From: an uncultured Erysipelotrichaceae bacterium
GTDB lineage: Bacteria; Bacillota_I; Bacilli_A; Erysipelotrichales; Erysipelotrichaceae
DNA: 32,000 bases
Reading direction: 5' to 3'
Assembly: GCA_964401865.1 (NCBI GenBank)
Contig: CAYNZZ010000006.1
Coordinates: 41,870-73,869, forward strand
A program made the translations under genes and the position numbers. This document shows, one piece after another, positions 11,750-28,852 of the stretch. The notes beneath the pieces were generated by a model. The model made no database searches. It was not told the DNA's origin and saw only the letters and a list, made by a program, of their open reading frames with translations. How positions within the stretch are numbered: position 1 is the stretch's first letter; each line of letters opens with the position of its first letter.

Positions 11750-11955
11750 ATTATCACCTCTTAGCTTCTATACTTTCAGTGTAATCTTTAAAATCTAAAA
11801 ATACAATAATGGATATTTTCGCACCATCTAAAGAATACACTTTGATCTACAGTATTGGAATATTAAGATATTTGATGTCTTATGATTAAATATTCTTTAT
11901 AATGTGTGTGAATTAATAACGTCAAATTGTAATTTTATGCTCTGTAAACTTCTAA

Positions 11956-12279: not shown

Positions 12280-12329
12280 ATTTTTAATCTCCTTTAGAAT
12301 CCTTAGATTAGTGCAACAAATTAATCTCT

Positions 12330-13013
12330 CTATTTATTAATATCACTGGAAACGACCTTAGCATACTTGGAGAAGGTGTTTCTAGAGATATGATGCTTTC
12401 TTAAAAGTTCTGCAATGGAAATAGTCTTTTCACCAACATTCTGGCAAAGGTACTTCCTTATATCCTCTTTAAGTTCATCATTCATCTTATCTAAATGACC
12501 AATAGCTCTTCCTGGCTTTTTGTCAGAGGCAGCCATGCCATCTTTTGTACGCTTGGATAATGTCAATCTTTCCTGTTCTGCTCTATTGAGTTCAACAATC
12601 AGCAAAAGCTTAACAGTTGATTCTAAAGATACCTGCGCAACAAGATCCTGCTGCTCAGCAACACGAAGCAATTCTTTAATATACGCAGTAGAAACTGTTG
12701 GATTATCAATGAAGACAAGCTCTATGCCCTTCTTCATTAAACTCATGTATTTGTCATAACCATTAAGGGCTTCTCTTGTAAACCTTGAGATGTCTTTAAA
12801 GACGATGGTATCTCCAACTCTCGCCAATGCTTCCAGTTTTTGCCATTCTTTTCTGTTTTCAAAAGACTTGCCTGATTCATCTTCCATATAGCTTACAGAA
12901 TAGATGATGTTATTATCCCTGGCATACTGCTCTAAAGCTTTTTGCTGTCTGGCATACTTCTGTTTCTGTCTTTCTTCTTTTGTTGATATTCTCATGTAAG
13001 CAAAATAAGCCAT
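12330..13013 (-). CDS. small serine recombinase (resolvase/invertase family)
   Basis: N-terminal YMRISTKEERQKQ matches the catalytic Y-x-R-x-S-T motif. C-terminal HTH (ISIAELLRKHHISRNTFSKYAK). Length is 227 aa. Its ATG overlaps the TAA of the upstream gene (TAATG at 13011-13015). Confidence 0.8.
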   Translation of the reverse strand: MAYFAYMRISTKEERQKQKYARQQKALEQYARDNNIIYSVSYMEDESGKSFENRKEWQKLEALARVGDTIVFKDISRFTREALNGYDKYMSLMKKGIELVFIDNPTVSTAYIKELLRVAEQQDLVAQVSLESTVKLLLIVELNRAEQERLTLSKRTKDGMAASDKKPGRAIGHLDKMNDELKEDIRKYLCQNVGEKTISIAELLRKHHISRNTFSKYAKVVSSDINK

Positions 13014-13960
13014 TAGTCATGACCTCCCAGGAAATTCATGATCAATGTTACCATTGTTTCCTTCTCTTCTGGCCTGCTCTCTGCCACCATCAAAGTAATT
13101 GCCACTAAAGCACTATTAGAAATGACCTGGCTTCCATTTCTTCTTAATGCATTATTCTTATTTAAAAACTCAAGGAATATTGAAGCACCAATTCTCTTGC
13201 AGCCATCCGCAAAAGGGTGGTCCTTGATAAGGAAATAGAGAAGATTGGCAGCCTTCTCTTCAATGCTTGGATATACTTCCGTACCAAAGACATTCTGATA
13301 AACTGCTTCCAAAATACCATTCAGTTTGCCCTTCTCCTTTTCAACGCCAAATACATCAGAGTTAAACTTCATAGAATCAATCAGTTTTCTGCATTCCTCA
13401 TAGTTAAGACGATAAAGGGTATCATTGCCTTCTGGACGGTTTAAACTCTGATGATCATAGTCATCTAGAAGATCCAAGGCCTTTGTATATTCAATTACAA
13501 CCTTATAGACATCTTCCCCTTCAAACTCTAGTGCAGAAGCCAGCATCTTGGACTGAATCTCAATTGTCTTATTCAAAGACTCGAGTCTTTTCTCGTTGAT
13601 GGCATAACCCTTGAGAATGTAATCTTTCAAAACTGAACTTGCCCATCTTCTGAAGGCAATGCCCTGTTTTGACTTGACACGATATCCAACAGAAATGATC
13701 ATATCCAAGTTATAATGTTCTACCATTCGAGTTACGTCTCTTGTTCCTTCAGCTTGAACTGTCGCAAATTTTGCGACAGTTGAAAGTTCCGCCTCTTCCT
13801 TAAGAGCATTGTTGATATGTTTACCTATTGTTTTGATGTCTCTTCCGAATAATTGAGCCAACTGTTCACGATTTAGCCATACAGTTTCCTGCTTTGGATC
13901 AATCTGAACTTCTATTTCGAGTTCACCATCTTTATAAATAACTATTTCATTTCTATCCAT
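13013..13960 (-). CDS. RhuM-family N-terminal domain fused to a Doc/Fic-like domain
   Basis: RhuM signature VAKFATVQAEGTRDVTRMVEHYNLDMIISVGYRVKSKQGIAFRRWASSVLKDYILKGY. The C-terminal HPFADGCKR (13219..13193) resembles the Doc motif HxFx(D/N)(A/G)NKR, with Cys in place of Asn. Confidence 0.8.
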   Translation of the reverse strand: MDRNEIVIYKDGELEIEVQIDPKQETVWLNREQLAQLFGRDIKTIGKHINNALKEEAELSTVAKFATVQAEGTRDVTRMVEHYNLDMIISVGYRVKSKQGIAFRRWASSVLKDYILKGYAINEKRLESLNKTIEIQSKMLASALEFEGEDVYKVVIEYTKALDLLDDYDHQSLNRPEGNDTLYRLNYEECRKLIDSMKFNSDVFGVEKEKGKLNGILEAVYQNVFGTEVYPSIEEKAANLLYFLIKDHPFADGCKRIGASIFLEFLNKNNALRRNGSQVISNSALVAITLMVAESRPEEKETMVTLIMNFLGGHD

Positions 13961-13985
13961 GTTTAGTTGTCTCCTTATAAAGTAG

Positions 13986-14057
13986 TATATCGTGCGATAT
14001 ATTGATTACCCAGATTATACTATTCAAAATAGTCAAAATCCATTATTTTGACTATTT
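13986..14057 (-). promoter_or_regulatory. promoter/operator region of the RhuM-recombinase unit: two palindromes flanking a TATAAT box
   Basis: Perfect 13-bp inverted repeat aaatagtcaaaat (14027-14039) / attttgactattt (14045-14057) with a 5-nt spacer. Minus-strand TATAAT at 14019..14014. Second palindrome tatatcg-tg-cgatata at 13986-14001 in the leader. Confidence 0.45.
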
Positions 14058-14080
14058 AATCAATATCGATTATTTATTTT

Positions 14081-14115
14081 TAAAAAATGACCATCCTTTT
14101 TCAGAATTGGCCATT
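14081..14115 (-). terminator. possible terminator of the eight-gene operon
   Basis: 8-bp stem (14086-14093 / 14108-14115; the one non-Watson-Crick pair is G.U only on the minus strand) with a 14-nt loop, then a T-run on the minus strand. The large loop lowers confidence. Confidence 0.3.
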
Positions 14116-14283
14116 TTTAGGCATTTTAAGCAACGTTTTGTGTTGGATGATGAGTATCATTAACTGAACGAATTTAACCGGTCAATTTTGGATCACTTTT
14201 CTCATTCTACAAAACGTTATGAAAATGAAACAGCATGCCATATCACGCCAATTCATTCCTTAGTCCAATCACAGATAAGTGTA

Positions 14284-14493
14284 TTATTGGTTTTCTGGAA
14301 GGACTTCCATAACATCATCTATACTACATTCAAAATGTTTGCATATTTTGACCATTACTTCCATAGATACAATTTCATTCTTGCCAAGTTTTGCTAGAGT
14401 AGGACCACTGATTCCAACTTGCTTTGCAAACTGTGTTTTGCTTAATCCTTTATCAACGAGAAGTTTAAACAGATTGTTGTATTTGACATCCAT
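14284..14493 (-). CDS. XRE/Cro-type helix-turn-helix regulator (69 aa), copy 2
   Basis: MDVKYNNLFKLLVDKGLSKTQFAKQVGISGPTLAKLGKNEIVSMEVMVKICKHFECSIDDVM is a typical short HTH_XRE protein. AGGAG RBS. The gene starts 11 nt after the DGQHR gene stop. Confidence 0.8.
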   Translation of the reverse strand: MDVKYNNLFKLLVDKGLSKTQFAKQVGISGPTLAKLGKNEIVSMEVMVKICKHFECSIDDVMEVLPENQ

Positions 14494-14504
14494 ATCCTGA
14501 CTCC

Positions 14505-16811
14505 TTACAAAGTTAAAATGTTCATAATCCAGTCATAGATAGACTTAACATAGCTGTATTCATCAACAGGAACACTGTAGCTATCTTTTGCAAGCTTATT
14601 ATGGATAGAATTGACCTTAATAATCCAATCTGTCTTAACATCTTTTCCGCCTTTTAACTTTTCTTCTTCAGGGCGAACAAAGGTATCTTCGAAATGCATC
14701 GACCAGTTATTACCATTCAATAAGATTGGCTTACATTCAGAGAACGGAACATAATCCCAAATTGGAATTTCTACATCTTCACCATCATTGCTAATTAGCT
14801 CATACATAGCCTCATCAGCAAGACCTTTTGCCTTTGTATAGATGTTCTTCGGTACTCCTTTGACTAACCAACTATCTCCGTAATAGTCTTGCAATCTTTC
14901 GGAAATAATTGACTTTACCTTGCTTTCAATATCTTCAATCATTGCTTTAGTCTCGTCGTTGTAAATCTTCGTTTCATTTAACCAGTATTCCTCTAAACCA
15001 ACCGGTTTGAAATCCGGTCTAGCGTCAGCGATTGCCTTTTGATATGCTCTCCAGAACCTAGTGTCTGCTCCACCACCAAAATAACCTCTTAAGTCTTTCT
15101 TTTGTTCAGCAGTCATTTTATTGATATAGTCCGATAGTGGCTTTAGATAATAACTTATCAAACCGAACATATCGTCTGCATCTTGTTTCTTTGGTTCGAT
15201 CATTCCTTTGTCAACAAGCATGCACACAACATCATCCAACACCCTAATTACAGCTTGCATGCCTCTATTCATTGTCAACATACCACTGTCTTTATCGCCC
15301 TTGTCCCATTCATCCAGACATGCCTCTCTGAGGTATAAAAGGCATTTTTCTAGGAAAGGATAGAAAAGATCACACGTCTCTTGATTTTGCCCACAATCAA
15401 AAGTTCCTTCTTTTTGAAGGACATTCTTTTTGCCATATGTATTGAAGAAATTGCTTTTCTTTAATGCAACTTGGATAGCTTCAACAGTAATACATCTTTC
15501 AGGCGTTACTTCATTTTCACCTATTACAACTCTGCCATGTAAAGGAGATGTGGGTTCTTCGCCAAGCATCTGTGCAATTTTTGATCTTAGCGCCTGTCTC
15601 TGTTCACCTAAATCGCTCGATTCCCATAACATATCTGCATTCAATGTTACACGCAATGACTTCGGAACAGCTTTTTGGTTTTCATTGATATCCATGAACA
15701 GCTTTATTTGTTCTGTTCTTTCCAAATCAACAAATGCAACGACAGGTATCGTGTTAGTTGAGGCATATTTAGAATCTGAGTAACCATAAAGACGATGTTG
15801 CCCATCAATGATATACGCAGATCTATATCTCTTAGGAATATGTAAGACACCAATTTTAGATAAAGTTCCTTCTACTCTAGTAGATGATTGATCAAAAGTT
15901 AATCCCTTTCCGTTAGCGTCAATGCTGATGATGATTGAGTTTGGGAAATACCCTCCATTGTCAATAAATGATTTAACATCTTGTAATCTTTTCTTCTTAA
16001 TAATTCTTTGATAAGTAGGCATCATATTCTGGTTAGCTTCAGAGCGATGCAGCACATAGCCAATCTTTAATAATCTCTCCGGCTCAATCGAAAATGAGTA
16101 ATATGTATATCCACCCATTTTTCCTTGAATCGCAGGAACTCTGTCATCCATGTTTTTAATTTCCTGATTGGCAAATAGATTACCCAATAACTGGTATCTT
16201 GAACTTGAACCCAAATGTTTTGATAATTCTGAGTAGTACTCAACGGCAGAGTTATCAAAAAAGGTAATTCCATATTTATCAAGCTGAGCTAAGTCACGTC
16301 TATTTGTTATAAAGTTTCGTGATGCCCAGATAAATTTTATTTTTCTTCCTGGATATTGTTGGAGTATCTCCTTCCTCATGCCTTGTAGTTTGTTTCCGAA
16401 ATCATTTATTTCCTCATAGAAGCTCTTTTCAACGACAACATCAGAAGCTTTACATACAACTGCCAGTATTGTCTCGTCATCCGCTGCGATAATATCAATG
16501 TTTTCCTTTAATTTTGGATCATGAAAATCATAAGCAACCCTAACGCTTTCAAGAGAATTCATATTTGTAAAACCCATACTCAAAAAGAGTATCCATAGCT
16601 GATCTGTAAACTGTTCAATAGCTGGTTTTTCTTTTGAAACTGCAACAAACTTCGGATTCTTGAATTCCTTGGTTTTTTCCCAACCGAGGTCCACATATTT
16701 CGGAAGTTCAGATGCTAAGACCTTCTGGGTAACATCTTTCTTTTTTCTAGAATTCTTAATCGGCACTAAATCTTTTCCAGATACCATTACATCCCAATTA
16801 GTTCTTTCCAT
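14505..16811 (-). CDS. DGQHR-domain (DndB-like, ParB/Srx-fold) protein, 768 aa with extra N- and C-terminal regions
   Basis: YIIDGQHRLYGY is encoded at 15806..15792 (gat ggg caa cat cgt), followed by FMDINENQKAVPKSL. AAGGAGG RBS. The start overlaps the methylase stop by 14 nt. Confidence 0.75.
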   Translation of the reverse strand: MERTNWDVMVSGKDLVPIKNSRKKKDVTQKVLASELPKYVDLGWEKTKEFKNPKFVAVSKEKPAIEQFTDQLWILFLSMGFTNMNSLESVRVAYDFHDPKLKENIDIIAADDETILAVVCKASDVVVEKSFYEEINDFGNKLQGMRKEILQQYPGRKIKFIWASRNFITNRRDLAQLDKYGITFFDNSAVEYYSELSKHLGSSSRYQLLGNLFANQEIKNMDDRVPAIQGKMGGYTYYSFSIEPERLLKIGYVLHRSEANQNMMPTYQRIIKKKRLQDVKSFIDNGGYFPNSIIISIDANGKGLTFDQSSTRVEGTLSKIGVLHIPKRYRSAYIIDGQHRLYGYSDSKYASTNTIPVVAFVDLERTEQIKLFMDINENQKAVPKSLRVTLNADMLWESSDLGEQRQALRSKIAQMLGEEPTSPLHGRVVIGENEVTPERCITVEAIQVALKKSNFFNTYGKKNVLQKEGTFDCGQNQETCDLFYPFLEKCLLYLREACLDEWDKGDKDSGMLTMNRGMQAVIRVLDDVVCMLVDKGMIEPKKQDADDMFGLISYYLKPLSDYINKMTAEQKKDLRGYFGGGADTRFWRAYQKAIADARPDFKPVGLEEYWLNETKIYNDETKAMIEDIESKVKSIISERLQDYYGDSWLVKGVPKNIYTKAKGLADEAMYELISNDGEDVEIPIWDYVPFSECKPILLNGNNWSMHFEDTFVRPEEEKLKGGKDVKTDWIIKVNSIHNKLAKDSYSVPVDEYSYVKSIYDWIMNILTL

Positions 16812-17628
16812 CCTTTACCTCCTTCTCTGGTATGTTAGTGAATATGTATTCTTTTACTAACCCTCTTCTAGCGTTTCGGCCACCAATAACACTGTTTCTA
16901 TTTTCGACTATCAGTCTTCCTTTGCTTGCAAATATATCAACAATTGTTTCGTGTGCCGCATTTGTCATAATGTAGTACGCTCCAACGCTATTTATATGGT
17001 CAATTAATTCCCCTAACCTTCTTTGATCGTCCATTGAGAATAATTTAGCGTTGTATTGAAGAAAGCCGTTTTTTACTTCCGCAACAACATATGGAGGATC
17101 AAGAAACACCAAATCTCCTTTTTTTATATTCTTTTTTGAATCGGAAAAATCACCAGTACTAATTGTTGTGTTTTGTAGTTTACAACTTGCCCATTTTAAT
17201 TTATCTATGTCGTGTGTATAATTTCGATGCCCATACGGAACGTTGTATTTACCTTGACGATTGACGCGATATATTCCGTTAAACGACGTTGCGTTCAAGT
17301 AGATGAACTTTGCGGCTTTCTCACATAAAGTGTTTGGTTCAGATGATCGCATTGCATAATAGGCATCCTCTCCATTTTCATAGTTTTCTAAAACACCGGA
17401 AACACCATCTAAATCATCCCTTATTTGAACATAAGCATTAATTAAATCCTCATTTATATCAGATAAATACGCTTGCTTATCTCGCTCTAATGAAAAGAAA
17501 ATAGATGCACCACCTAAAAATGGTTCAATATAATTATTAAACTCCAATCCATCGATTAGTTCTTTCACAAAAGGGATCAGCCATTTTTTCCCTCCGGCCC
17601 AACGCAAAAAAGAATGATTATTCATCAT
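16798..17628 (-). CDS. Dam-family (D12 class) N6-adenine DNA methyltransferase
   Basis: N-terminal FLRWAGGKKWL and EPFLGGASIFF (AdoMet binding). The catalytic DPPY is encoded at 17100..17089. Length is 276 aa. Confidence 0.85.
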   Translation of the reverse strand: MMNNHSFLRWAGGKKWLIPFVKELIDGLEFNNYIEPFLGGASIFFSLERDKQAYLSDINEDLINAYVQIRDDLDGVSGVLENYENGEDAYYAMRSSEPNTLCEKAAKFIYLNATSFNGIYRVNRQGKYNVPYGHRNYTHDIDKLKWASCKLQNTTISTGDFSDSKKNIKKGDLVFLDPPYVVAEVKNGFLQYNAKLFSMDDQRRLGELIDHINSVGAYYIMTNAAHETIVDIFASKGRLIVENRNSVIGGRNARRGLVKEYIFTNIPEKEVKDGKN

Positions 17629-19211
17629 TAATACCCCCTTACTAACTCAAGCAGATAATACTTAGCCCTTGTGTAGGCTATGTAATTCATGTTATCGGTT
17701 GTACTTGGTGAATGTATATATACAACCATATCTGCTTCCAATCCTTTATATTCAAGAATTGATGCAACCCTGATTTCAGAACCAGAGGAAATTTTGTCAC
17801 CAACGAAAGACCATTTCGCAATGCCGTTCTTGTATTGTTCCATAAATTCTTCCTTATTATCAACAATCAAAATCATAGAAGAATTAGGCAAATGCTCATC
17901 GTCAATATACCTTTTAAACAGGATTTCTAAACGTTGAGTCATTAAATTATGACTGTTGATGGTTTCTGTTTGTGGTGTAGGACCTTCTACAGGGTTTGAT
18001 ACCATATCAGTACCTAAATTTGTTTTCTCTGCTGTCCAATTATAAATGTTGGATGTATTTCGTATATTTTCGTGAAGAAGGAATGGGGGAGTAGAAATTC
18101 CAAAACCCTCACCAAAACTATCCTGTCTTAATATCTGAACATCATCATAAAAAACTCCAAGAATAGATTTTTCACTATCTTTAAGAAGATGTTTTATTGT
18201 CTTTGCGCATTCTTCAGAAAAGTCCTGAGCCTCATCAACAAATATTGCATCGTATTTATTTAGGTCATTTTTTAGATTGCTATAAACCCCAATATAATAC
18301 GGGCCTTGCAGCATCTCAAAATCAGTTATTATTTCTTCAAATAACGACCTTATATCTCTTACCTCAACGCTATTCTCTGTTATTTCTCTTAAATATTCCG
18401 CAAGACATTTCGAAGCGCATAAGAAAAGTGTCTTTTTTCCAAAAGAAGCCTCTTTTTCGGCCATTTTCTTAGCAATCCATGTTTTCCCGGTTCCAGCTCC
18501 ACCTTTCATATAAAATTGGCGAATATTTTGGAGCAAATATACATAATTGTCTTGGACTCTATTTATTACGTTAAGTTGTTGGTCTTTGTATTGTACTAAA
18601 GCTCCTGCAGCAGCACTTATGGCCAATCGTTCTCTTACTAGTTCAAGAAAGGTTTTGTGTTGATTTGCAGGATAATACCAGCCGTATGGTTTCTTGTTGT
18701 AGAATTTAAAAATTCTTTTTATCTTACTGTAAAGGTTGTTTAAATCGTGTTGATCGATTGTAATCTCACGATGTCTATTATCTATTGCGTCTTCTTCGCC
18801 AATAGCGTGAAAAGGAAAGACCGCTGCAGCACCAAAAATGCCAGGGTAATCAATATAATTACGATTAGAATACTGATTTTTGAAATAATACATGCTTTCT
18901 TCTGCTTGATCATATGGAGATCTGTGTAGCTTTCTATCTCCATGAAGAGTATCCCCCACATACCAGACATTGTCTTTAATTGATAAATTACTGCCCCCCT
19001 TGACCTCTAAACAAAGAAAACCATATTCCGACGAAGTCACAACAAAATCCGATTCTGACTTAACAATCTTTCCATCTTTAATATCCGTCCATTTAACCGA
19101 ATAAAAAACTTCAAAAGAATCTGGCAATTGATTTTTCAATTCATAGTAAACTAATCTTTCCGAATCGGTTGGCATGTATTCTGCAATACTTTTGGGATAC
19201 ATAATAGCCAT
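17628..19211 (-). CDS. NERD nuclease-related domain fused to an SF1 (UvrD-like) helicase/ATPase
   Basis: NERD core SESDFVVTSSEYGFLCLEVKGG (D-x13-E-V-K, 19049..18999). Walker A GGAGTGKT, Walker B FVDEAQDF, and C-terminal EYKGLEADMVVYI plus AYTRAKYYL. Confidence 0.8.
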   Translation of the reverse strand: MAIMYPKSIAEYMPTDSERLVYYELKNQLPDSFEVFYSVKWTDIKDGKIVKSESDFVVTSSEYGFLCLEVKGGSNLSIKDNVWYVGDTLHGDRKLHRSPYDQAEESMYYFKNQYSNRNYIDYPGIFGAAAVFPFHAIGEEDAIDNRHREITIDQHDLNNLYSKIKRIFKFYNKKPYGWYYPANQHKTFLELVRERLAISAAAGALVQYKDQQLNVINRVQDNYVYLLQNIRQFYMKGGAGTGKTWIAKKMAEKEASFGKKTLFLCASKCLAEYLREITENSVEVRDIRSLFEEIITDFEMLQGPYYIGVYSNLKNDLNKYDAIFVDEAQDFSEECAKTIKHLLKDSEKSILGVFYDDVQILRQDSFGEGFGISTPPFLLHENIRNTSNIYNWTAEKTNLGTDMVSNPVEGPTPQTETINSHNLMTQRLEILFKRYIDDEHLPNSSMILIVDNKEEFMEQYKNGIAKWSFVGDKISSGSEIRVASILEYKGLEADMVVYIHSPSTTDNMNYIAYTRAKYYLLELVRGY

Positions 19212-19213
19212 AT

Positions 19214-21118
19214 TTACATCTCCCAGAAGCCAACTTTTATTTCTTTGGCTCCATCAATTGAATATAGATACTTTCTACCTAGTTCCAGATTAAAATGGTT
19301 ACATGAGATTTCAGGGAGAATAAGGCATGCGCTACATGCAGTATCGTCTCTTTCTGTGCAAATAGGATCAAAAACACAGTTCTTTGATTCGTCAAATGTT
19401 TTCTTTAAGTAATATAAATATCTCGATTCCGCCATGCCAGATAATGCACCTAATGGGATACCTTGGCTTGTCTGTGCATAAATAAAGATGCTAGCAGTTT
19501 CTACAATTATTATTTCGGTTAATGAATTGCTAGACAAACCACTTATTTCACCTGCAGATTCGATAAACGCATGTGACATAGAATGTAAAAGCGAATAAAC
19601 GTTTTTTGTAATTTCCTCGCTGTTATCGATGCTGCCAAACATCGGAATAGCATCACTATGAACATATTCTGCAAACCATTTCTTTACAGAGATTTCGTCA
19701 TCTAGATCTGGTACCATTTCTTCTCTGATGACACCATTTGCTAATAACCATTCAATGATTTTCCTTTGGTCAATCTCAAATAAAATACCTTCAGTATCTA
19801 ACCTAGAGCCAAAAACTAGATTAGTGTTTGAATTCTTGCTCCTGTCATATGCGTTTAGTTTCAACCTACAATTTTTATTAGTAGAATTGCTAGGATCAAC
19901 TGATCTTCTAGTATATCCATACGTACAATTTACGATTTGTGAGTCACAGGTAACTTGCATATTCTTGATACCAAGTTTTTTATTCATATCATACACTTCA
20001 TCCACAGAATCAATGAATTCCATATCCAATTGTCTCTGGATGGAGTCCTCTAAAGTGATGACTCGTTTAGCATCTTTTATCGTGTTGTATTGCATCAACT
20101 TAAAAGAGAAATTATTGATCCATTCATTATATGCGTTCGGATCATCTGATTTTCTTTTAGAAAATAGTTCATCACATGCAGTGACATAACGTTCAACACC
20201 TTTATCATTGGATTTGGTTTTCATTATCTGTGCAACCGTTTCATCAAATTTCTCAGGTGCAATAAGTCCAATAGCGATCAACCCATTAGCTTGATTTTCA
20301 GCCTCTTTTCTTACTGACTCGTCTTTATATTCGTCGCTAAAAGCAAGCTCAACATTATTTAATATGAAATCAAAATTTGATGGCGTAATTTTGTCGAACC
20401 ATTTAGATACTAAAACTTTTTGGGCGTCTAATCCTTTTTCATAAAACTTTCCACTTTGTGTATCAACTAGATTAATAATTCTTAATGTGAATGGTTTGTA
20501 ATTCTTTCCTGAGCTAGCATTATCTGGACGTAGATGTGAATTACAATTCGGACAAACTTGGATAAATTCAGCTGTTTTTTCACTATTCCCATTTCTATAT
20601 ATCATCTTATATGGGTTATCATTTGGACGATATTTGAAATCTTTGACATTTTTAACATAGGGAATCTTGATTGGCTGGGCATAGCCACATTCGCATGTAT
20701 AAATCATCTGTAGCTGCTTAACAGAATTCTTTTTGCATTCTGGACATCTCCATGTATATTTATCAACAGCGCCTGCACTTTTCTTTTCAAACGCGGTTCC
20801 GCATGAACCGCAATAAAAAACCAAAGGCGAAATTTCTCCCATAATATCTGGAGTGTTTTCAATACAAGCGGTCTCTACTATTTCAAATGATGGGGTGTTT
20901 TCTTGCAAATTGAATGCGGATATATCACCATTTCTATTCTCAAACAATCTTATTTGTCGCTTGATTTCACTGTCTATGAACTTGTCGTAAATGCCTTCCA
21001 TCTTTCTATAATTCCAATTTTTGATCTTGGCAGTTACCACTTCACTTGTATCATTCCTCTCAGAGATCCACATTTCCGGAAGGAATCTATATACTGCCTG
21101 ATTTTTGCTTCTTTTCAT
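19214..21118 (-). CDS. DUF1998-like zinc-ribbon protein (DrmB-like)
   Basis: C-terminal cluster C-x5-C-x7-CSAC-x7-C-N..L.L.R (19378..19301) fits the DUF1998 pattern as I recall it from MrfA/DrmB. There are extra CxxC ribbons (CGSCG...CPECK, CPNCN). Length is 634 aa. It sits directly downstream of an SF2 helicase. Confidence 0.65.
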   Translation of the reverse strand: MKRSKNQAVYRFLPEMWISERNDTSEVVTAKIKNWNYRKMEGIYDKFIDSEIKRQIRLFENRNGDISAFNLQENTPSFEIVETACIENTPDIMGEISPLVFYCGSCGTAFEKKSAGAVDKYTWRCPECKKNSVKQLQMIYTCECGYAQPIKIPYVKNVKDFKYRPNDNPYKMIYRNGNSEKTAEFIQVCPNCNSHLRPDNASSGKNYKPFTLRIINLVDTQSGKFYEKGLDAQKVLVSKWFDKITPSNFDFILNNVELAFSDEYKDESVRKEAENQANGLIAIGLIAPEKFDETVAQIMKTKSNDKGVERYVTACDELFSKRKSDDPNAYNEWINNFSFKLMQYNTIKDAKRVITLEDSIQRQLDMEFIDSVDEVYDMNKKLGIKNMQVTCDSQIVNCTYGYTRRSVDPSNSTNKNCRLKLNAYDRSKNSNTNLVFGSRLDTEGILFEIDQRKIIEWLLANGVIREEMVPDLDDEISVKKWFAEYVHSDAIPMFGSIDNSEEITKNVYSLLHSMSHAFIESAGEISGLSSNSLTEIIIVETASIFIYAQTSQGIPLGALSGMAESRYLYYLKKTFDESKNCVFDPICTERDDTACSACLILPEISCNHFNLELGRKYLYSIDGAKEIKVGFWEM

Positions 21119-21128
21119 GTACCTCTCC

Positions 21129-24100
21129 TTAATTTATTTTTATTTCAATCTGTTCTTCTGTGTCTCTCAAACTTCTCATTGGTTTCTTATTGCCTTTTGA
21201 GAATTTTGCGATTACATCTGATAGGAACTCATCTTTAGTGAAATTTCCTGTCTGAATACCAGTAAGAATATTAGTCGCTTCTTCATTAATTATTTCTGCA
21301 TAAGCAATAGACAATTTTTCCTGGCTATTACATCCATAAATTCCAATTAACTTTTCAACCACATCATCAACTCTGATTTTTCCATCGGCAAGTAACTTCT
21401 TGACTTTTGTTGCAAAGTATAAATTATCTTCGCCAGTCAAAACCGTATAATACTGCATCAATAAACCAGATAATAGGCCCGGCAATGTACTGTAAATAGC
21501 ATTTTTTGCCCATCTATTAATCGGAACTGACTCTACTAAATCATCTTTATTCTGGTGGAACACGACGAAATTCTTGAGGTATGACCTATCTCTTACTCTC
21601 ATTAGTCTGATGATATCTATAACAATTCCGGTGTACTTTCTGCCAGTTCTTGAATACGCCTGGATATACTCGGCATTATTATTTGGCATTCCAAAGAAAT
21701 ACATAATGTTAAAAGAATCTTCATCAACACCATGCGAAATAGTGCTTGTTGCCAACAACAAATTGGTGCTTTCAACATTCTTTCGATTAGCTTGAATATT
21801 AAACAGCGTTTGTCGAACAGATTGGAAGTCCGTGTCACTTGTCATCTGACTAATTACAAATTTAGGAACATTTTTGGCCTCTAGGAAGTTATTGCCCTGA
21901 TTCTGAAATGCATTTTCCAATTCCATGGCATCTTGTTTCCTGTTGTTATAAACAAGCTCAATCCAGTAATCAAACAGCTTTTCTTTAAGTTCTTCTTCTG
22001 AACCATTAAATCCTTTTTCCTGTAAATCTTTTAATACAGAATTTGTATTCTTCATCATGTAATGGATTAATAGCCTCATAAAATAAACCGATTCCCACAT
22101 TCCATCAGTGATTGAACGACCATATGGAGCATATCCTAACAAGATTCTTGAAATATCGTTTCCGTCGGTGTAGGAATAAAAATCTTCATCTGATTTTGTT
22201 GACGGATATTCACAAGGGAATCTTCTTCCCTGCATATGATACAGGTTGAGAATATGATCTTTGTACATGGAAATTGTTGCCGTAGCACCTATAAAACGAA
22301 TCTGTTTCTGTTGACTCTTAGGAACAAGATTTTTTGCATAATAACTCATAAATGACTCGTAATGCGAATCGAAAGTACCTAAGCTTTCCTTAACAAGATG
22401 CATTTCATCCTGAATAAATAATGTTGGAATAGGATCCTTTAGAACGCCCACATCTTCTAAGGCGTCTCTGTTTAAACAACTTGAGCACGTACATTTTCCA
22501 GTGGCAGAAAAGCCATGAATCTTACACTTTTTCTTTACTTGTCCAAAAAGCATTTTGAATTCATTGGTCGTGCCTAACATAGCCATCTTGTCAATCGTAC
22601 TAACCACAATAGATGGCAAATAACGATAGATTTCGCTATCCACAATAAGCAACGGTAACACTCCTGCTTTACAGTCAGGATTGTCACAAACATGTTCTAG
22701 TTTCCACGTACTCTTGTTAAATCGAACATTAACCATTTTTTTGCCACAGCACGGGCATGTATCGATAAATCTATAATATTCATTTAACGTATCTTGATCG
22801 CTCTCAAGAATTAAGTTTGTGTCTTTGCCAGCGCCTCTATCGCTTAATTTCTCATGTTCGTTAATTCTGTTTGGTGTGTTTTCTTTGCCCACAAAGAAAC
22901 CAACAGAAAATGGATTTGTCAGAGACAAATCGCTGTTATCCTTAACGATATTTGCTTTCATTACGATGTTTAATACTCTGTCTAACTGTTGAACCGCCAA
23001 TAAACGCAAAGGATACTTAAGAATTGCTGTGATTCCTTCGTCTTTGCCTCTTAAACGATCGAAGAACATAGCGAAAACGCTTATGCCCAAGAATGCCTCT
23101 GTCTTTCCGCCACCTGTTGGGAAATATAAAAGATTTGCGATTTCATTATCAGCTTCTTTTATAGTCGTATCATCTTTATATTCACTTCGTATGATTTCAC
23201 AAATCATCGATACTATAAATACTATCTGGAATAAACGCCATCCAACTATTGGCCTTTGATTATTGCCGAGCTTGGTCATAAAGGTTTGGTTGGTAAATAC
23301 AAACGCACGTTTTACATAATCTTTGTACTTAATCTGATCAATACCCTTTCTGAAACGTTTAATTTCTCTTTGGTATTCCTCTAACGACTCTTTGAACTTT
23401 GCTTTGGCTGCAGGCGATAATGTATGAGTATTCTTAAATTCTTTTTCACACTCGTTATAGTCAGATATCATCTCATCATATATAAAAGTCAAATTTGTAA
23501 CTGGATCTTCTATAAGTTTTTCGAACAGGACATACTTGTTTAAAGAATCTTTGGTTTTTAACCTCATCTGATAATACTTAGGAACATTATCTGTGCTGAT
23601 TGAATTACTCGCCTTGTCAAAAAATGCGGATGTATTCTCTGCAATAGCATAAACAGGATTTCTAGCTTTATAACTAGATTTAAAATAGTCTAACTCGATT
23701 TCGTTGAATATAATGCTGTCATTTCCGACAATTTTCATTCCAGCATTAAATACGCTAGGTAAATATCCAATATTCTTTCTGGAATCAATAGGCGTTTTAT
23801 TAACCATCTGTAAAAGGAATCTATATTTATCTCCTTCTTCAAAAAAAGTACAATAAATATCAATGGTCCACCTAGGACTAACTTTTTCATTTTTTATTGC
23901 GGTGCGAAGTTTGAATACTTCTTCACTCATCAAGTCACCAAAATGAACACGATCAGTCTGCATTATGCAAATTTCGTCGCTAATTTGATTGGATAGAGCC
24001 AGTAGTTTTTCAGTGATATTCGCCTCTAAATGAAATGATTTGTTTTTTAATTCTGCTAAATTAATCTCTATTCCGTCCCCCATTGTTTCTTCGATAGAGA

Positions 24101-24524
24101 TTTTTTTATACGTTAATGGTAAATAAAAGTATTCTTCTGGATAAACATCGGCTAATTGATTTATATCTTTATACTGAATATTATCCTTTTCAGTATATTT
24201 TTGAACAACAAAATCTATCGTTTTCTTATAATCTGGTTTGACAGTGTAGAAAAGAGAGCCTTTTGGAATAACTTTTAACACTCCGCTTTCATTTTTATTT
24301 ACCAAAAATGAAAGACTCATTGATGGCACACTTTCGAAACGAGTGTTGTTGTTTTCGACATATCCTCCAGAAAAACTTTCATCTACCCTGTTTTCTGCTA
24401 GCATGCCTACCATGACTCTCTTTTCAAGATCATCATCAACGAAAGTGCCATTAATGTCATCACCAGATACTCTCTCTATGTATTTAGAAACAATATAATC
24501 CGCTAATATTGCATAATCATTCAT
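21129..24524 (-). CDS. large SF2 DExH helicase (DrmA-like), 1131 aa
   Basis: Motif I FPTGGGKTEAF (23114..23100). Motif Ia YPLRLLAVQQ. Motif II IQDEMH (22409..22398). Motif III GATAT. Motifs V and VI are ATSTISHGVD and QAYSRTGR. Inserted Cys ribbons CPCCGKK...CDNPDCK. The N-terminal ~460 aa are unassigned. Confidence 0.75.
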   Translation of the reverse strand: MNDYAILADYIVSKYIERVSGDDINGTFVDDDLEKRVMVGMLAENRVDESFSGGYVENNNTRFESVPSMSLSFLVNKNESGVLKVIPKGSLFYTVKPDYKKTIDFVVQKYTEKDNIQYKDINQLADVYPEEYFYLPLTYKKISIEETMGDGIEINLAELKNKSFHLEANITEKLLALSNQISDEICIMQTDRVHFGDLMSEEVFKLRTAIKNEKVSPRWTIDIYCTFFEEGDKYRFLLQMVNKTPIDSRKNIGYLPSVFNAGMKIVGNDSIIFNEIELDYFKSSYKARNPVYAIAENTSAFFDKASNSISTDNVPKYYQMRLKTKDSLNKYVLFEKLIEDPVTNLTFIYDEMISDYNECEKEFKNTHTLSPAAKAKFKESLEEYQREIKRFRKGIDQIKYKDYVKRAFVFTNQTFMTKLGNNQRPIVGWRLFQIVFIVSMICEIIRSEYKDDTTIKEADNEIANLLYFPTGGGKTEAFLGISVFAMFFDRLRGKDEGITAILKYPLRLLAVQQLDRVLNIVMKANIVKDNSDLSLTNPFSVGFFVGKENTPNRINEHEKLSDRGAGKDTNLILESDQDTLNEYYRFIDTCPCCGKKMVNVRFNKSTWKLEHVCDNPDCKAGVLPLLIVDSEIYRYLPSIVVSTIDKMAMLGTTNEFKMLFGQVKKKCKIHGFSATGKCTCSSCLNRDALEDVGVLKDPIPTLFIQDEMHLVKESLGTFDSHYESFMSYYAKNLVPKSQQKQIRFIGATATISMYKDHILNLYHMQGRRFPCEYPSTKSDEDFYSYTDGNDISRILLGYAPYGRSITDGMWESVYFMRLLIHYMMKNTNSVLKDLQEKGFNGSEEELKEKLFDYWIELVYNNRKQDAMELENAFQNQGNNFLEAKNVPKFVISQMTSDTDFQSVRQTLFNIQANRKNVESTNLLLATSTISHGVDEDSFNIMYFFGMPNNNAEYIQAYSRTGRKYTGIVIDIIRLMRVRDRSYLKNFVVFHQNKDDLVESVPINRWAKNAIYSTLPGLLSGLLMQYYTVLTGEDNLYFATKVKKLLADGKIRVDDVVEKLIGIYGCNSQEKLSIAYAEIINEEATNILTGIQTGNFTKDEFLSDVIAKFSKGNKKPMRSLRDTEEQIEIKIN

Positions 24525-24536
24525 ATCTTCCCTCCG

Positions 24537-26480
24537 CTACTTTTTTAAAATCTCCTCCATTGGAGAACCTTCATCTAAATCGCTTAGCACATACAATACA
24601 TCCCTCGCTCTTGAACATGCTGTATACATCGATCTCATTTGACTTTGGAATTTTGATTGATATTCATCATCCATTTTTCGAATCGCTTCCCATGACTTAA
24701 TCTTTTTTTGTTTGCCCTCATCAGAGAATACAAAATTGTATGGATATAACCCCGCAAAAATTACCGCCTTAAAATCTAATCCAAGTGATGAATCTATTGT
24801 TGTGAGAACAACGCCGTTAGTGTCAGAAAATTTTTTCTTACCTGGCGCCTGCGTAATAATGGAGTAAGGTATTCCTTTTTCATTTAAAAGAGCTTCCATC
24901 CAGTTCATGAAAAAGTACATTACTCTTTTGTGCTGCTTGTATGGAAAAATAACAGCGATATCAGAATACGGAATCTTATGCTTATTGGTGATTTCTGTAA
25001 TTGCTGTAGCAACTTCCTGTTTTATATTGTTTCTGTCAATACCTGTTTTAATTTTTAAGGCCGTTGTCGGATTGCTGCCAATTTTGAACGTATTGTATTC
25101 ATATTCCATTGAATCAATTAGGCCTAACATGCTTAACCTTTTATTCATTAAACTCAACATAGATTTGATGTATTCACCAATAGCTTGACTATTACGATAA
25201 TTCTTTTCTATGTATTTAACTCTGCCTGTAAAATCTAGCTTTGTCCCAGCAATCTTTTTCCACGGGGCGTCCCCTTTTCTACTTAATGCTCTTACCGCTT
25301 GGTTCAAATCTCCAGCCATTAAAAATAAGCTGTCTTCTTCTTTTTCTAGTAATAGATAACAGAGTTCTAAGTATAAAGGGTCAAAGATTTGCACTTCATC
25401 AATCAAGATTGCCTTAAAACTCAATTGGATCTTTCCCAGCTTGACTGCTTCGATACACTTTTGTATTTCTTCCTCACTGGCGATGTTACTCTCTAAATTA
25501 ACCCCTAAACACTCCTGATAAATTTTCTTTACCAATTTATGGAATGTCATAATATACAAATTATTATTGTCTCCAAAATTTGCGCAACTTCTTTTGAATA
25601 GATATGAGTCTGCTAGATTATTGTTGTAGCAAGTTAATAGAACCCTTGATTCCTTATACATACTTGCGTATTTATACGCTTTTGAAAGAAGTAACACGCT
25701 CTTCCCTGCTCCTGGATTAGCCAGAATTACCCTGTGGCCTCTTCCCGTGTCGTTAACCTGCGAAACTTGGTATTCATCTAGAAAAAATGTTTTATACTCC
25801 AACTCTCTTCCGGTAATTTTTAATGCATCTTCAGATAGGAATCTTTTCTTGTTTTCAATCTTGGCATTTTCTAATTCAGTCATTACAACTGTATACTCTG
25901 GGGCTAAACGTTCAAAAATAGCCTTACATTCAAGCTCTGACAATGACGAAAAATCGCTATCATATCCTTTTCTAAAATTCGTAAATATTCTCAAATCTGC
26001 AAGAATCCGCGCCTTTCCTTTGATGTTGGTCGGTTGGAAGAATCCTAATGCTACAAAACCACTGAGATTCTCTTTTTGATCTTGCGATAACTTAATCGTT
26101 TCTAAACGTTCCTCAGGAAACAAAAAAATGTGCTTATATGGGAATTTTAAAGACTTATATTCACCTTGACGAACAATGAGCAATTTAGAGTCAAGCAGTC
26201 TTTCATAAATTTTATCTTCAACAAATTTGACACCTTGCTTGTACGCTTCGATATAATCAGGCGATAAATTCCCATTCTTTATTGAGAAGGTAACCAATCC
26301 TTCAGAAGTGGAAATGTAAAAGCCCATTTTTACATCTTTGCTGCTCATACCCAGCGGATCAATATCGACAGCAAAATGGCCACTTTTAAAATTAGCAGCC
26401 GCTTTTCTTAATAAAGCTTTTTCTGCTTTTGTAATGTGGTCTTTTCTTTCGTAATCTTGTGGCCATAATCGAACCGCCAT
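24537..26480 (-). CDS. SF1 (UvrD-like) helicase/ATPase with a degenerate NERD-like N-terminus
   Basis: Walker A NPGAGKSVLL, Walker B LIDEVQIFD, then NYRNS, SSLGLDFKAVIFAG and YTACSRARDVLYV. The start is moved from the TTG at 26489 to ATG 26480, which lies 9 nt after the AGGAG RBS. Confidence 0.75.
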   Translation of the reverse strand: MAVRLWPQDYERKDHITKAEKALLRKAAANFKSGHFAVDIDPLGMSSKDVKMGFYISTSEGLVTFSIKNGNLSPDYIEAYKQGVKFVEDKIYERLLDSKLLIVRQGEYKSLKFPYKHIFLFPEERLETIKLSQDQKENLSGFVALGFFQPTNIKGKARILADLRIFTNFRKGYDSDFSSLSELECKAIFERLAPEYTVVMTELENAKIENKKRFLSEDALKITGRELEYKTFFLDEYQVSQVNDTGRGHRVILANPGAGKSVLLLSKAYKYASMYKESRVLLTCYNNNLADSYLFKRSCANFGDNNNLYIMTFHKLVKKIYQECLGVNLESNIASEEEIQKCIEAVKLGKIQLSFKAILIDEVQIFDPLYLELCYLLLEKEEDSLFLMAGDLNQAVRALSRKGDAPWKKIAGTKLDFTGRVKYIEKNYRNSQAIGEYIKSMLSLMNKRLSMLGLIDSMEYEYNTFKIGSNPTTALKIKTGIDRNNIKQEVATAITEITNKHKIPYSDIAVIFPYKQHKRVMYFFMNWMEALLNEKGIPYSIITQAPGKKKFSDTNGVVLTTIDSSLGLDFKAVIFAGLYPYNFVFSDEGKQKKIKSWEAIRKMDDEYQSKFQSQMRSMYTACSRARDVLYVLSDLDEGSPMEEILKK

Positions 26481-26492
26481 ATCGCTCAACTC

Positions 26493-26696
26493 CTAACTAA
26501 AATTGATTTTCATAATGTCGTCAACCGAACAGTTGAGATATCGACAGATTCTAATAATTATCTCCATCGAAACAATCTCATTTTTACTAAGCTTTGCAAG
26601 AGTCGGAGCGCTTAATCTCACTCTCTTTGCAAATTCAGATTTCTTGATTTCCTTGTCAATTAGCAGTTTCCAAAGATTGTTATAACTAACATCCAT
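26493..26696 (-). CDS. XRE/Cro-type helix-turn-helix regulator, copy 1 (first gene of the operon)
   Basis: MDVSYNNLWKLLIDKEIKKSEFAKRVRLSAPTLAKLSKNEIVSMEIIIRICRYLNCSVDDIM. ATG 26696 follows a GGAGAG element and aligns with the MDV start of copy 2. The track start at 26708 is an alternative. Confidence 0.8.
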   Translation of the reverse strand: MDVSYNNLWKLLIDKEIKKSEFAKRVRLSAPTLAKLSKNEIVSMEIIIRICRYLNCSVDDIMKINFS

Positions 26697-26729
26697 ATTT
26701 CTCTCCATTGTTGTATTAATTCTAACACA

Positions 26730-26812
26730 AACGCTAATGGATATTAAGCGAATGCTAATATATTACGCCAATATATTAATTTTTCTCAATAGTTCACATT
26801 AATCGCCAATAC
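26730..26812 (-). promoter_or_regulatory. putative operon promoter with repeated TATTGGCG / ATTAGC motifs
   Basis: Read on the minus strand: TTGAGA (26789..26784), an 18-nt spacer, then TAATAT (26765..26760). TATTGGCG occurs twice (26811..26804 and 26773..26766). ATTAGC(A/G) occurs twice in the leader. Confidence 0.3.
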
Positions 26813-27286: not shown

Positions 27287-27307
27287 TCATTAGCAAGAAA
27301 TTAGCAA
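27287..27307 (+). repeat. 21-nt motif TCATTAGCAAGaaATTAGCAA (copy 1)
   Basis: Matches 29074-29094 at 19 of 21 positions. Further ATTAGCAA copies start at 27190 and 27300. Confidence 0.7.
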
Positions 27308-27458: not shown

Positions 27459-28643
27459 TTAATGATATAACTCAAATTTTTGACACTCCCTAGATAAATC
27501 ATTTATTGTGCATACAGATACTCTCGAATAATTATCATAGTAAATGTATTCTTCATAATGACTAGGCTTTATTAAATCATCTTTTCTCATAATATAACCA
27601 TCATAATTGTAAGTATATACATACTCATAATCGTATGCCGAATTGTTATAATTTGTGCTTTTTTCATGAATAAGGCGATTGTTAGAATCAAACTCAAATG
27701 TATCGATAAATGATAGTTCATCATTAAAGTAATAAGTTCTTGATAACATCCTTCCATCTTTAGTATATTCGAATATTTCTTTGACTGTATGGGCATCTAT
27801 ACCAAATTCTTTATTTTCTTTAAAATCGGAATTTCTTATGATTTTTGATGGTGAACCATCAACATATCTTTCAAATTCAGTAATTATAATACCATTATCA
27901 TTAGTTTCAATGAGTTTTGATAAAAAATCATTTTTATCATATTCAAAAGTTAATTGTTCATTGAAGTTATTTTGAGAATCAATAGAACCTGATTTAATTA
28001 TTTTTCCATCTTTAAAACAGTCAATATAACCATCATCATTTATGTAGCATATTGTTCCATCATCGTTGTATTTGACTTGATAATGATTCTCTTTTAAATT
28101 ATAAAAACTTTTGCCTGCGACATCATATGTGTATTGGTAGATATCGCTGATAACATCTTCTTCATCTAGTAAATATATTGTGTAGTTACTATTTTTAAAT
28201 AACTCTTGATTATTCGATGATAGATACTTAGAAATATAGTATGAACTATCAAAGTTACCACCAATGCGTGGACAATTACCTTGATAAAAATCAATATTTC
28301 TTTTATCTTCATAAAATGGATCAAAGTTTATATCATAATCAATAAGTATTCTTTTAAAAAAAACATTATTTATATCATAAATATCATAACCATCTTTTAA
28401 ATCATTTATTAATTCTTTTGTCTGGATACCTTCAGAATACTTTAAAGATTTGTCTATTGTTCTTACTGCATTAAAATACTCATCATCAATGATGTAAGCC
28501 TTAAATAAATCAATATATGTTACTTCATTAGTATTATCTTCTTTCAACATATTGTTTAATGATTCAATCTCATTTTTTGCATTATATGATTTTTGACAAG
28601 ATACTAAAAAAATAATGATAAATATAGTTAGAAAACGTTTCAT
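27459..28643 (-). CDS. lipoprotein, Asn/Tyr/Asp-rich, with degenerate YD-like repeats
   Basis: MKRFLTIFIIIFLVSCQKS contains the lipobox LVSC. The start is moved to ATG 28643. Repeats include FEYDKNDFLSKL, FEYTKDGRMLSRTYY, FEFDSNNRLIHE and YTYNYDGYIMRK. Confidence 0.65.
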   Translation of the reverse strand: MKRFLTIFIIIFLVSCQKSYNAKNEIESLNNMLKEDNTNEVTYIDLFKAYIIDDEYFNAVRTIDKSLKYSEGIQTKELINDLKDGYDIYDINNVFFKRILIDYDINFDPFYEDKRNIDFYQGNCPRIGGNFDSSYYISKYLSSNNQELFKNSNYTIYLLDEEDVISDIYQYTYDVAGKSFYNLKENHYQVKYNDDGTICYINDDGYIDCFKDGKIIKSGSIDSQNNFNEQLTFEYDKNDFLSKLIETNDNGIIITEFERYVDGSPSKIIRNSDFKENKEFGIDAHTVKEIFEYTKDGRMLSRTYYFNDELSFIDTFEFDSNNRLIHEKSTNYNNSAYDYEYVYTYNYDGYIMRKDDLIKPSHYEEYIYYDNYSRVSVCTINDLSRECQKFELYH

Positions 28644-28852
28644 AAGTCCTATCTCTTTTATTAAATTATAGCATTTATTTGCTACAATTAGCACTTTTCG
28701 TGTAGGTATTAGTTTTTCTAGATGTTGTTAAAAGAGAAATTTTATTTTTGATAAAGAGCTGTCGAAAATGGGTAAAAATATTATGGTTTATGAATAAATG
28801 TTAAATGTATAAATGTAATAAATTTTAATGATCTTTAAACCTTCAAGAACAT

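Follow-up and report, generated by a model that had tools for sequence, protein, structure and literature searches.

A composite DISARM-family operon of an uncultured Erysipelotrichaceae bacterium, formed by fusion of a helicase-nuclease module with a Dam-DGQHR module and predicted to act in anti-phage defence

DISARM systems of class 2 (drmE-drmA-drmB-drmC-drmMII; Ofir et al., 2018, as cited in PMC9142583) encode a split helicase, in which DrmA is accompanied by a separate zinc-binding protein, DrmB, together with a large accessory protein upstream and a nuclease followed by a DNA methylase downstream, all within one co-directional operon. The DrmAB proteins of Serratia, which provide a template for the mechanism, form an ATPase complex that is activated by single-stranded DNA (ssDNA) or 5′-overhang DNA; DrmC does not co-purify with this complex and can be dispensed with (PMC9142583). 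The coupling of methylation to DrmAB and the identity of the nuclease that destroys the invading DNA are open questions in DISARM (PMC9142583). DISARM and the Dpd system have been placed in one 'DISARM-like' clade by a study that notes 'many uncharacterized DISARM-like ... classes' and mentions neither DGQHR proteins nor DndB (Bell et al., bioRxiv 10.1101/2025.09.15.676423). The subject here is an operon within a 32,000-nucleotide (nt) stretch of DNA from an uncultured Erysipelotrichaceae bacterium (assembly GCA_964401865.1, contig CAYNZZ010000006.1, positions 41,870 to 73,869; hereafter, the window), where a first-pass annotation, made by a model from the letters alone, had described eight minus-strand genes at 14284-26708 as a candidate new defence system with a DISARM-like core. 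The locus shares with class 2 DISARM the split DrmA with a separate DrmB, the upstream accessory protein, the downstream order of nuclease and methylase, and the co-directional arrangement. It is a fusion of two autonomous modules, SF1-DrmA-DrmB-NERD helicase and Dam-DGQHR, since each of them is also found alone, and it is probably a composite anti-phage operon of the restriction-modification type that belongs to the DISARM family, its function being predicted from its parts.

A DrmA/DrmB core of a divergent clade is confirmed by sequence comparison, as the first-pass annotation had proposed. The DrmA-like superfamily 2 (SF2) helicase of the YprA family (21129-24524, minus strand; 1131 amino acids, aa) matches the PADLOC DrmA profile over residues 190-1130 (2.6e-136) and chain A (DrmA) of PDB entry 7S9V (4e-49). 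Its zinc-binding DrmB-like partner (19214-21118, minus strand; 634 aa), which combines N-terminal zinc ribbons with a C-terminal Cys cluster, matches PADLOC DrmB (9e-48) and chain B of 7S9V (1e-5, residues 496-618). The GGGKTEAF and DEMH motifs of the former are invariant among homologues, and the Cys residues of the latter are conserved among homologues as well; the N-terminus of the DrmA-like protein gave no Pfam match above noise (E up to 5). Among plasmid-borne proteins, the closest relative of the DrmB-like protein, with 24% identity over 97% of its length, is encoded on pHTIA of Halorhabdus tiamatea in a canonical class 2 DISARM locus, DrmE-DrmA-DrmB-phospholipase D (PLD)-C5 methyltransferase. 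This order corresponds slot by slot to the order SF1-DrmA-DrmB-NERD helicase-Dam of the window, to which the DGQHR protein is added as an extra component. In the window, each non-core DISARM slot is taken by a protein that is unrelated to the usual occupant but analogous in class: a UvrD-like superfamily 1 (SF1) helicase in place of DrmE, a NERD-SF1 helicase-nuclease in place of the PLD protein DrmC, and a small Dam/D12 enzyme in place of the C5 or Eco57I-like methylase. None of DrmC/PLD, DrmD (SNF2), DrmE, DrmMI and DrmMII was found in the operon or its flanks with PADLOC, NCBIfam and Pfam profiles. Three defining components were looked for in these profile searches and are lacking, for which reason the locus would belong to the DISARM family but to neither class 1 nor class 2. 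Both the missing partners and the accessory set that replaces them are as the first-pass annotation had described.

The UvrD-like SF1 helicase (24537-26480, minus strand; 647 aa) opens the four-gene helicase/nuclease module, in the position held by DrmE in class 2 DISARM. It contains UvrD-helicase, AAA_19 and UvrD_C domains, preceded by a conserved alpha/beta domain (approximately residues 1-200) for which no Pfam match above noise was obtained (E up to 5). The best Foldseek matches of its AlphaFold2 (AF2) model (mean predicted local distance difference test score, pLDDT, 77) are SLFN11, PcrA, UvrD, Rep and Dna2 (E ~1e-13 to 1e-11), and its Walker A, DEVQ and NYRN motifs are conserved among homologues. 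The NERD nuclease-SF1 helicase fusion (17628-19211, minus strand; 527 aa), which stands where DISARM has the PLD nuclease DrmC, shows a NERD match (4.7e-8) in addition to its helicase domains and a full-length match to the PADLOC 'RTasNERD-Hel' profile (1.8e-45); residues D55, E69, V70 and K71, the Walker A motif and DEAQD are identical in all 17 homologues compared. The NERD helicase is likely to be the effector nuclease. NERD-helicase proteins of the same kind are associated with UG34 reverse transcriptases (PMC9226505). The SF1 helicase, the NERD helicase and the DGQHR protein gave no direct sequence match in the PDB. The motifs that had been read at first pass are all present in the translations, namely GAGKS/DEVQ/NYRNS, GGGKTEAF/DEMH/QAYSRTGR, D55-x13-E69-V-K71, GAGTGKT/DEAQDF, LRWAGGK/DPPY and DGQHR, but the plural 'NERD helicases' of that annotation does not hold, as only one of the two carries NERD.

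The idea that the UvrD-like helicase also carries NERD was rejected, since hhalign of its N-terminal profile against the N-terminal profile of the NERD protein gave a probability of 0.2%, and the lysine of its 'SIK' sequence is not conserved. Homology of the UvrD-like helicase to DrmE found no support (BLASTP against the Halorhabdus DrmE, E 0.71), nor did a recent paralogy of the two SF1 helicases, for which BLASTP was not significant. In several relatives (L008-L010, L022 and L025, with the SF1 gene at approximately 3990-6550, and L001/L024), the UvrD-like helicase bears an extra C-terminal extension of ~100-200 aa, giving proteins of 753 or ~852 aa against 647 in the window; the extension has no Pfam match and is a variable accessory domain. 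In one long-read metagenome contig (L036), the genes for DrmA (11967-15370) and the NERD helicase (17306-18915) are each split into two ORFs (open reading frames), which could be frameshift pseudogenes or a sequencing error.

A species-level scan, in which one genome per species was searched with the DrmB-like protein as query and all eight proteins were then compared by tblastn, yielded 22 loci; the match is substantial in 21 and amounts to a 46-residue fragment in the other (L026). The six large genes are found in the order of the window in ~16 species-representative genomes and ~42 metagenome contigs, many of the loci being metagenome-assembled genomes (MAGs) or metagenome contigs; the hosts in the species-level scan are Pseudoflavonifractor, Ruminococcus, Gemmiger, Oscillospiraceae, other Clostridia and one Bacilli MAG, with 55-78% identity. 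The fused order, with junctions of 0-14 nt, is kept in ~58 loci, down to 57-60% protein identity, and the contexts obtained from exact-protein look-up agree with it; one SF1 allele alone occurs in 135 blocks of the assembly collection. Across 12-19 homologues with 55-78% identity, there is no variation in DPPY, in DGQHR or in the catalytic motifs of the four ATPase/nuclease proteins. The variant is common in gut Clostridia, and because the six-gene order recurs in many genomes, the gene set is more than a chance juxtaposition, a possibility for which the first-pass annotation had allowed. The conserved unit, however, is six genes and not eight: the eight genes are adjacent in the window, as had been noted, but the two flanking XRE genes are lineage-specific. 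RefSeq names for the operon homologues are generic only and the DrmA/DrmB-like scores lie below the NCBIfam DISARM cutoffs, so that the system may be overlooked in censuses of defence systems in gut bacteria.

Each module also stands alone elsewhere, which bears out the alternative, raised at first pass, that two modules had been fused into one operon. In four loci from Lachnospiraceae, Oribacterium and Agathobacter (L013, L015, L017 and L018), a different Dam gene (30% identity) lies upstream of SF1-DrmA-DrmB-NERD helicase, and no 768-aa DGQHR protein follows the four-gene module; in L013, the module is directly followed by housekeeping genes (ROK, MFS and amylase). In a further locus (L016), the four genes are found by themselves between GNAT and histidine kinase genes, with no methylase or DGQHR gene nearby. 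As for the second module, a phage genome recovered with the DGQHR profile (L037) contains, of the six genes, only those for Dam (52% identity) and a 759-aa DGQHR protein (48% identity); the pair lies between genes for terminase, portal and head proteins and genes for DnaC, DnaD and RecT. A metagenome scan with the same profile covered the best 80 of 384 stretches, fused and stand-alone relatives together. Among these, DGQHR homologues of at least 60% identity belong to the full six-gene set wherever the upstream DNA suffices (42 loci), and homologues of 53-59% identity have Dam directly upstream and no helicase genes (~22 loci with enough upstream sequence, four of which have 10 kb upstream). 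The sole genes in common to 17 stand-alone loci are Dam and DGQHR. In a neighbour-joining tree rooted on the phage sequence, the fused DGQHR proteins form a monophyletic clade, which argues for one capture followed by joint inheritance.

In the Oribacterium locus (L017, 12902-16006), the Dam gene and four-gene module are followed by genes for an Mrr_cat nuclease, a 249-aa protein, a DndB-like DGQHR protein and an integrase; this DGQHR protein is 416 aa long, lacks the N-terminal nuclease domain and is a distinct DGQHR beside the same core.

The first gene of the Dam-DGQHR module (16798-17628, minus strand) encodes a Dam-family (D12 class) N6-adenine DNA methyltransferase of 276 aa (PF02086, 1.4e-46; NCBIfam TIGR00571, 190 bits, above the cutoff of 114.85), in which DPPY and FxGxG are invariant among homologues; its nearest PDB match is the GATC methylase DpnM (4e-43), and EcoDam is also matched (4e-25). 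The 768-aa DGQHR protein (14505-16811, minus strand; TIGR03187 DGQHR, 7.5e-49, 167 bits against a cutoff of 58.85) consists of an N-terminal PD-(D/E)xK-like part (approximately residues 60-200), a ParB-like DGQHR part (~225-530), in which the DGQHR motif is invariant, and a helical C-terminal part (~600-768). It matches DpdB in PADLOC (1.9e-24) and in NCBIfam (82 bits, cutoff 300), and DndB (TIGR03233) with 40 bits against a cutoff of 328. Residues 1-200 of the AF2 model have pLDDT values of 80-91, and the C-terminal helical domain is also confidently modelled. The Foldseek matches of the N-terminal domain coherently comprise PD-(D/E)xK nucleases (Card1, Cdn1, N.BspD6I, AF1548, NucS and McrC), and residues 89-161 show a weak match to Pfam Hjc; a PD-(D/E)xK fold at the N-terminus is supported by these predictions, the structural evidence being modest. 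No Pfam match above noise was obtained for the C-terminus (E up to 5). DndB has been described as a ParB-like domain with a second domain, and as carrying a HEPN domain (PMC3632139); when the C-terminal domain of the window protein was inspected by eye, no canonical HEPN Rx4-6H motif was found.

The alignment of all retrieved homologues separates stand-alone from fused proteins at the putative nuclease site. All stand-alone DGQHR proteins have QQID-VFAAD(D/E)ET-x-IVECK, a canonical D...ExK. In the basal branches of the fused clade, positions 106/119/121 read xEK, DER, DEH or DNR, and in its crown they are S/G at 106, S/L/I/T/V at 119 and H/R/Y at 121, so that most fused homologues have lost all three motif residues. 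The window protein has D106, V119 and K121, its glutamate having been lost (E119V). D111 and E113 are invariant everywhere, and C120, the DGQHR motif and most other positions are likewise kept. This pattern suggests that the canonical nuclease chemistry was lost after the fusion and that the protein was kept for another role.

No named system with the architecture of the window was found in PADLOC, NCBIfam and Pfam profiles or in literature searches, in agreement with the first-pass annotation. Among the components of the Dpd system are likewise a DGQHR/ParB-like protein, an enzyme that modifies DNA, a helicase of the YprA/DrmA family and additional helicases. Dpd, however, has a DpdA/TGT enzyme and preQ0 genes, which profile searches did not find in the window, where the modification enzyme is Dam; the Cys cluster that the unsplit DpdJ has lost is retained in the window, where the helicase is split into DrmA and DrmB; and the DGQHR protein has a PD-(D/E)xK-like domain at its N-terminus that DpdB does not have. 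In the Dnd phosphorothioation system, DndB similarly places a DGQHR/ParB-superfamily domain next to a DNA-modification enzyme, but the window has neither DndACDE nor DndFGH, and its protein is twice the length of DndB, with a nuclease-like N-terminus. The combination of an N-terminal NERD domain with a C-terminal SF1 helicase is shared with the UG34 DRT-associated 'cluster 485' (PADLOC RTasNERD-Hel) and with Nhi. The UG34 DRT system includes a reverse transcriptase, which is lacking in the window, where the NERD helicase is embedded in a DrmAB operon, and the Nhi match is confined to the helicase part (1.7e-11). ARMADA, BRIGADE and TALON (Bell et al., bioRxiv 10.1101/2025.09.15.676423) are, like the window operon, DISARM-related multi-helicase operons centred on the YprA family, and two traits are shared in particular, namely the UvrD/GajB-like helicase in which ARMADA II ends and the NERD nuclease carried by TALON. 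The helicases of ARMADA and TALON are nevertheless unsplit, of the ARMADA/Druantia-like YprA type, and are accompanied by BrxHII and PglX (ARMADA) or by TPR-CSD and TBP (TALON), and there is no Dam or DGQHR gene in any of the three systems; in the window operon the helicase is split, and profile searches gave no SNF2/BrxHII or PglX match. The window methylase is nearest to DpnM of the DpnII-type Type II restriction-modification systems, and the stand-alone Dam-DGQHR pair resembles a mobile cassette of a methylase and a PD-(D/E)xK nuclease, but the partner here is a ~760-aa ParB/DGQHR NTPase-type protein instead of a small Type II endonuclease.

These observations are probably best explained by the following mechanism, which is predicted from homology and position. 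DrmA and DrmB would form an ATP-driven complex that loads onto the single-stranded or 5′-overhang DNA of the invader, by homology with Serratia DrmAB; the NERD-SF1 helicase-nuclease in the DrmC slot would supply nuclease and translocase activity and degrade the invading DNA, and the UvrD-like helicase in the DrmE slot would serve as an accessory motor. The second module would have originated as a mobile, two-gene, restriction-modification-like pair of a DpnM-like N6-methyladenine methylase, which probably targets GATC or a site like it, and a PD-(D/E)xK-ParB(DGQHR) nucleoside triphosphatase (NTPase)/nuclease. After its capture behind the first module, Dam would mark the host DNA as self, and the DGQHR protein, with its canonical nuclease triad lost, would be kept as a non-cleaving reader of DNA or its methylation state, a loader or a regulator, coupling the methyl mark to the DrmAB/NERD machinery. 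A more specific form of this proposal, in which the captured nuclease has been domesticated into a non-cleaving Dam-methylation reader that licenses or blocks DrmAB/NERD and the locus represents a new DISARM class, is advanced only tentatively. If it were true, a dedicated, genetically separable protein would supply the link that is missing between methyl mark and activation of DrmAB, and self/non-self discrimination in DISARM-type systems would have a tractable handle. The variant replaces the uncertain parts of DISARM by recognisable ones, a NERD helicase-nuclease and a Dam-DGQHR pair, and natural 'experiments' are at hand in the four-gene and two-gene modules that occur by themselves and in the fused forms with an intact or a decayed nuclease motif.

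Several points weigh against a composite DISARM-family operon of this kind. The DrmA-like protein scores 347 bits against the NCBIfam DrmAS cutoff of 950 and the DrmB-like protein 78 bits against the DrmB_fam cutoff of 240; of the DUF1998-like Cys cluster described at first pass, the Cys clusters are present in the DrmB-like protein, but Pfam DUF1998 gave no match to it, the matches being to zinc ribbons only. L016, where the four genes stand alone, is a MAG, and its methylase could lie elsewhere. The DGQHR core is modelled poorly by AF2 (pLDDT <50), the E values of the Foldseek matches of the nuclease-like domain are weak (best 5.7e-3, up to 0.1), and the DGQHR tree is a simple neighbour-joining tree. 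The window protein retains D106 and K121, and a non-canonical active site might persist in the fused clade because D111 and E113 are invariant everywhere. Finally, a nuclease in the 'DrmC slot' need not be the effector.

Of the other explanations, one holds that the operon consists of two independent systems that are merely co-transcribed, a Dam-DGQHR restriction-modification-like pair and a DISARM-like helicase/nuclease set that do not interact. The clustering of defence systems is common, and the modules are autonomous elsewhere, the four-gene set in L016 and in L013, L015, L017 and L018, and the pair in phage L037 and the ~22 metagenome loci. We nevertheless consider this explanation unlikely: tight junctions and gene order have been maintained across the ~58 fused loci to the limit of identity given above, the monophyly of the fused DGQHR clade implies one capture and joint inheritance, the four-gene module usually lies beside some Dam-family methylase, and the canonical nuclease triad decays in the fused clade only, which would not be expected if the pair restricted DNA by itself.

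The DGQHR protein could instead be purely a modification-side factor like DpdB and DndB, an NTPase that loads, stimulates or limits Dam and never was a restriction nuclease, with DrmAB/NERD sensing DNA structure (ssDNA ends) and not methylation. DpdB is an ATPase cofactor of DpdA. The best named PADLOC and NCBIfam matches of the DGQHR protein are indeed DpdB and DndB, but the scores are far below the family cutoffs. DndB is reported to be a regulator of modification (PMC4507180; PMC3632139), DrmAB discriminates by DNA structure (PMC9142583), and the phage-borne pair could serve fast self-methylation as an anti-restriction measure. Against this, the canonical D...ExK is strict in every stand-alone homologue, which argues for a real nuclease, and the variant with Dam upstream (L013, L015, L017 and L018) works without such a partner; a purely modification-side role is accordingly judged quite improbable. 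The possibility that the cassette is primarily a maintenance/addiction or DNA-processing module of its mobile island, and not a phage defence, seems remote. Pairs of the restriction-modification kind are able to function as addiction modules, the operon is flanked by a serine recombinase and a RhuM/Fic gene, and the locus is polymorphic among sister strains. Yet the recognisable components (DrmA/DrmB, NERD-helicase and DGQHR/ParB-nuclease) all come from families whose role in anti-phage defence is established or which are enriched there, and the cassette is found across unrelated genomic contexts, with no fixed mobile-element backbone.

The ORF listing confirms the layout given by the first-pass annotation, with all eight minus-strand ORFs co-directional at exactly the coordinates given there. 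The intergenic gaps are 2-12 nt (10 nt from drmA to drmB), the NERD helicase and Dam genes share a single base (TAATG at 17628), and the Dam and DGQHR ORFs overlap by 14 nt (16798-16811). The claim that each ORF has a GGAG-type ribosome-binding site (RBS) stands for seven of the eight starts; for XRE-1, such a site (GGAGAG) is found only ahead of the internal ATG at 26696. This ATG, which aligns with M1 of XRE-2, is probably the start of XRE-1. The TAG of XRE-1 overlaps an AGGAG that sits 9 nt before the ATG at 26480, and this ATG, rather than the TTG at 26489, is most likely the start of the SF1 gene. A candidate promoter region 5′ of XRE-1 (26719-26789, minus strand) contains two overlapping sigma-70-like sites, TTGAGA-18-TAATAT and TTAATA-17-TGnTAGAAT, and a terminator-like hairpin follows XRE-2 (14231-14250, minus strand). 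Both features are consensus matches only; they would fit a single transcription unit.

XRE-1 (26493-26708, minus strand) is a Cro/C1-type helix-turn-helix (HTH) regulator of the HTH_26 family (PF13443, 8.7e-18), and XRE-2 (14284-14493, minus strand) is assigned to the same family by its profile match and its paralogy with XRE-1, the two being 61% identical. They bracket the set as paralogues, as had been claimed, but an XRE gene lies 5′ of SF1 in just six related loci (L004, L008, L009, L043, L074 and L117), and in most relatives the XRE genes are absent or different; in Pseudoflavonifractor, a WYL gene is found downstream of the cassette instead. XRE-1 and XRE-2 are thus outside the conserved cassette, and XRE-1 would be a local transcriptional regulator and no core component. 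Sister strains from which most of the system is gone (L028-L031) keep XRE-2 beside a 3′ remnant of the DGQHR gene. A box, ATTGGCG(A/T)N(A/T)(A/T)T, occurs in three copies on the minus strand (26804-26810, 26762-26772 and 14242-14252), two of them in the XRE-1 promoter region, one adjoining a perfect TAATATATTA palindrome, and the third in the hairpin after XRE-2. The boxes may be XRE operators, a weak assignment given two strict matches against 0.28 expected. The tetranucleotide GATC is under-represented over the window (1-32000), with observed/expected ratios of 0.61-0.65, and CATG is also low (0.67); the depletion of GATC is equal inside and outside the operon and therefore says nothing on the specificity of the methylase.

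The gene directly downstream of the operon (13013-13960, minus strand) encodes a RhuM/Fic protein (PADLOC single-gene candidate PDC-S23, 1.8e-129) and is overlapped by a serine recombinase (resolvase) gene (12330-13013, minus strand). Fic genes recur next to the system, two of them being located upstream of the six-gene cassette in L034-L036. Contigs of sister strains (Logan DRR8155xx; loci L027-L032) are 99.9% identical to positions 772-15705 of the window and then diverge, the DGQHR gene being cut at 15705, approximately at codon 369, with the junction AAGCTGTTCATGG; upstream of this point, the sister strains have small Zn-ribbon ORFs and a 228-aa HTH-like gene instead, and L027 has the full system. 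Because L027 is complete and the sister contigs are truncated, the system is polymorphic or partly deleted within one species, a turnover that is typical of defence islands.

No convincing pair of att-like direct repeats was found around 11.7-29.3 kb at the boundaries of the island. A 21-nt direct repeat, TCATTAGCAAG.AATTAGCAA, 90% identical, is present at 27287-27307 and 29074-29094, around a 411-aa ORF (27459-28694, minus strand) that has no Pfam, NCBIfam or PADLOC match and no exact sequence in a collection of 15 billion proteins; the region of this ORF has the lowest GC content in the window (0.26-0.28). Beyond it, 29290-30681 on the plus strand encodes a protein with Schlafen AlbA_2, HATPase_c_4 and winged-HTH domains and a weak match to PADLOC PDC-S50, which may be one more gene with a role in defence or regulation, at the margin of the island. 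On the other side of the operon, a 2085-aa protein with Listeria-Bacteroides repeats (3009-9266, minus strand) adjoins a sortase gene (2168-2992, minus strand) and probably serves as a surface protein anchored in the cell wall of a low-GC Firmicute, and the choloylglycine hydrolase gene at 10772-11749 suggests a gut organism.

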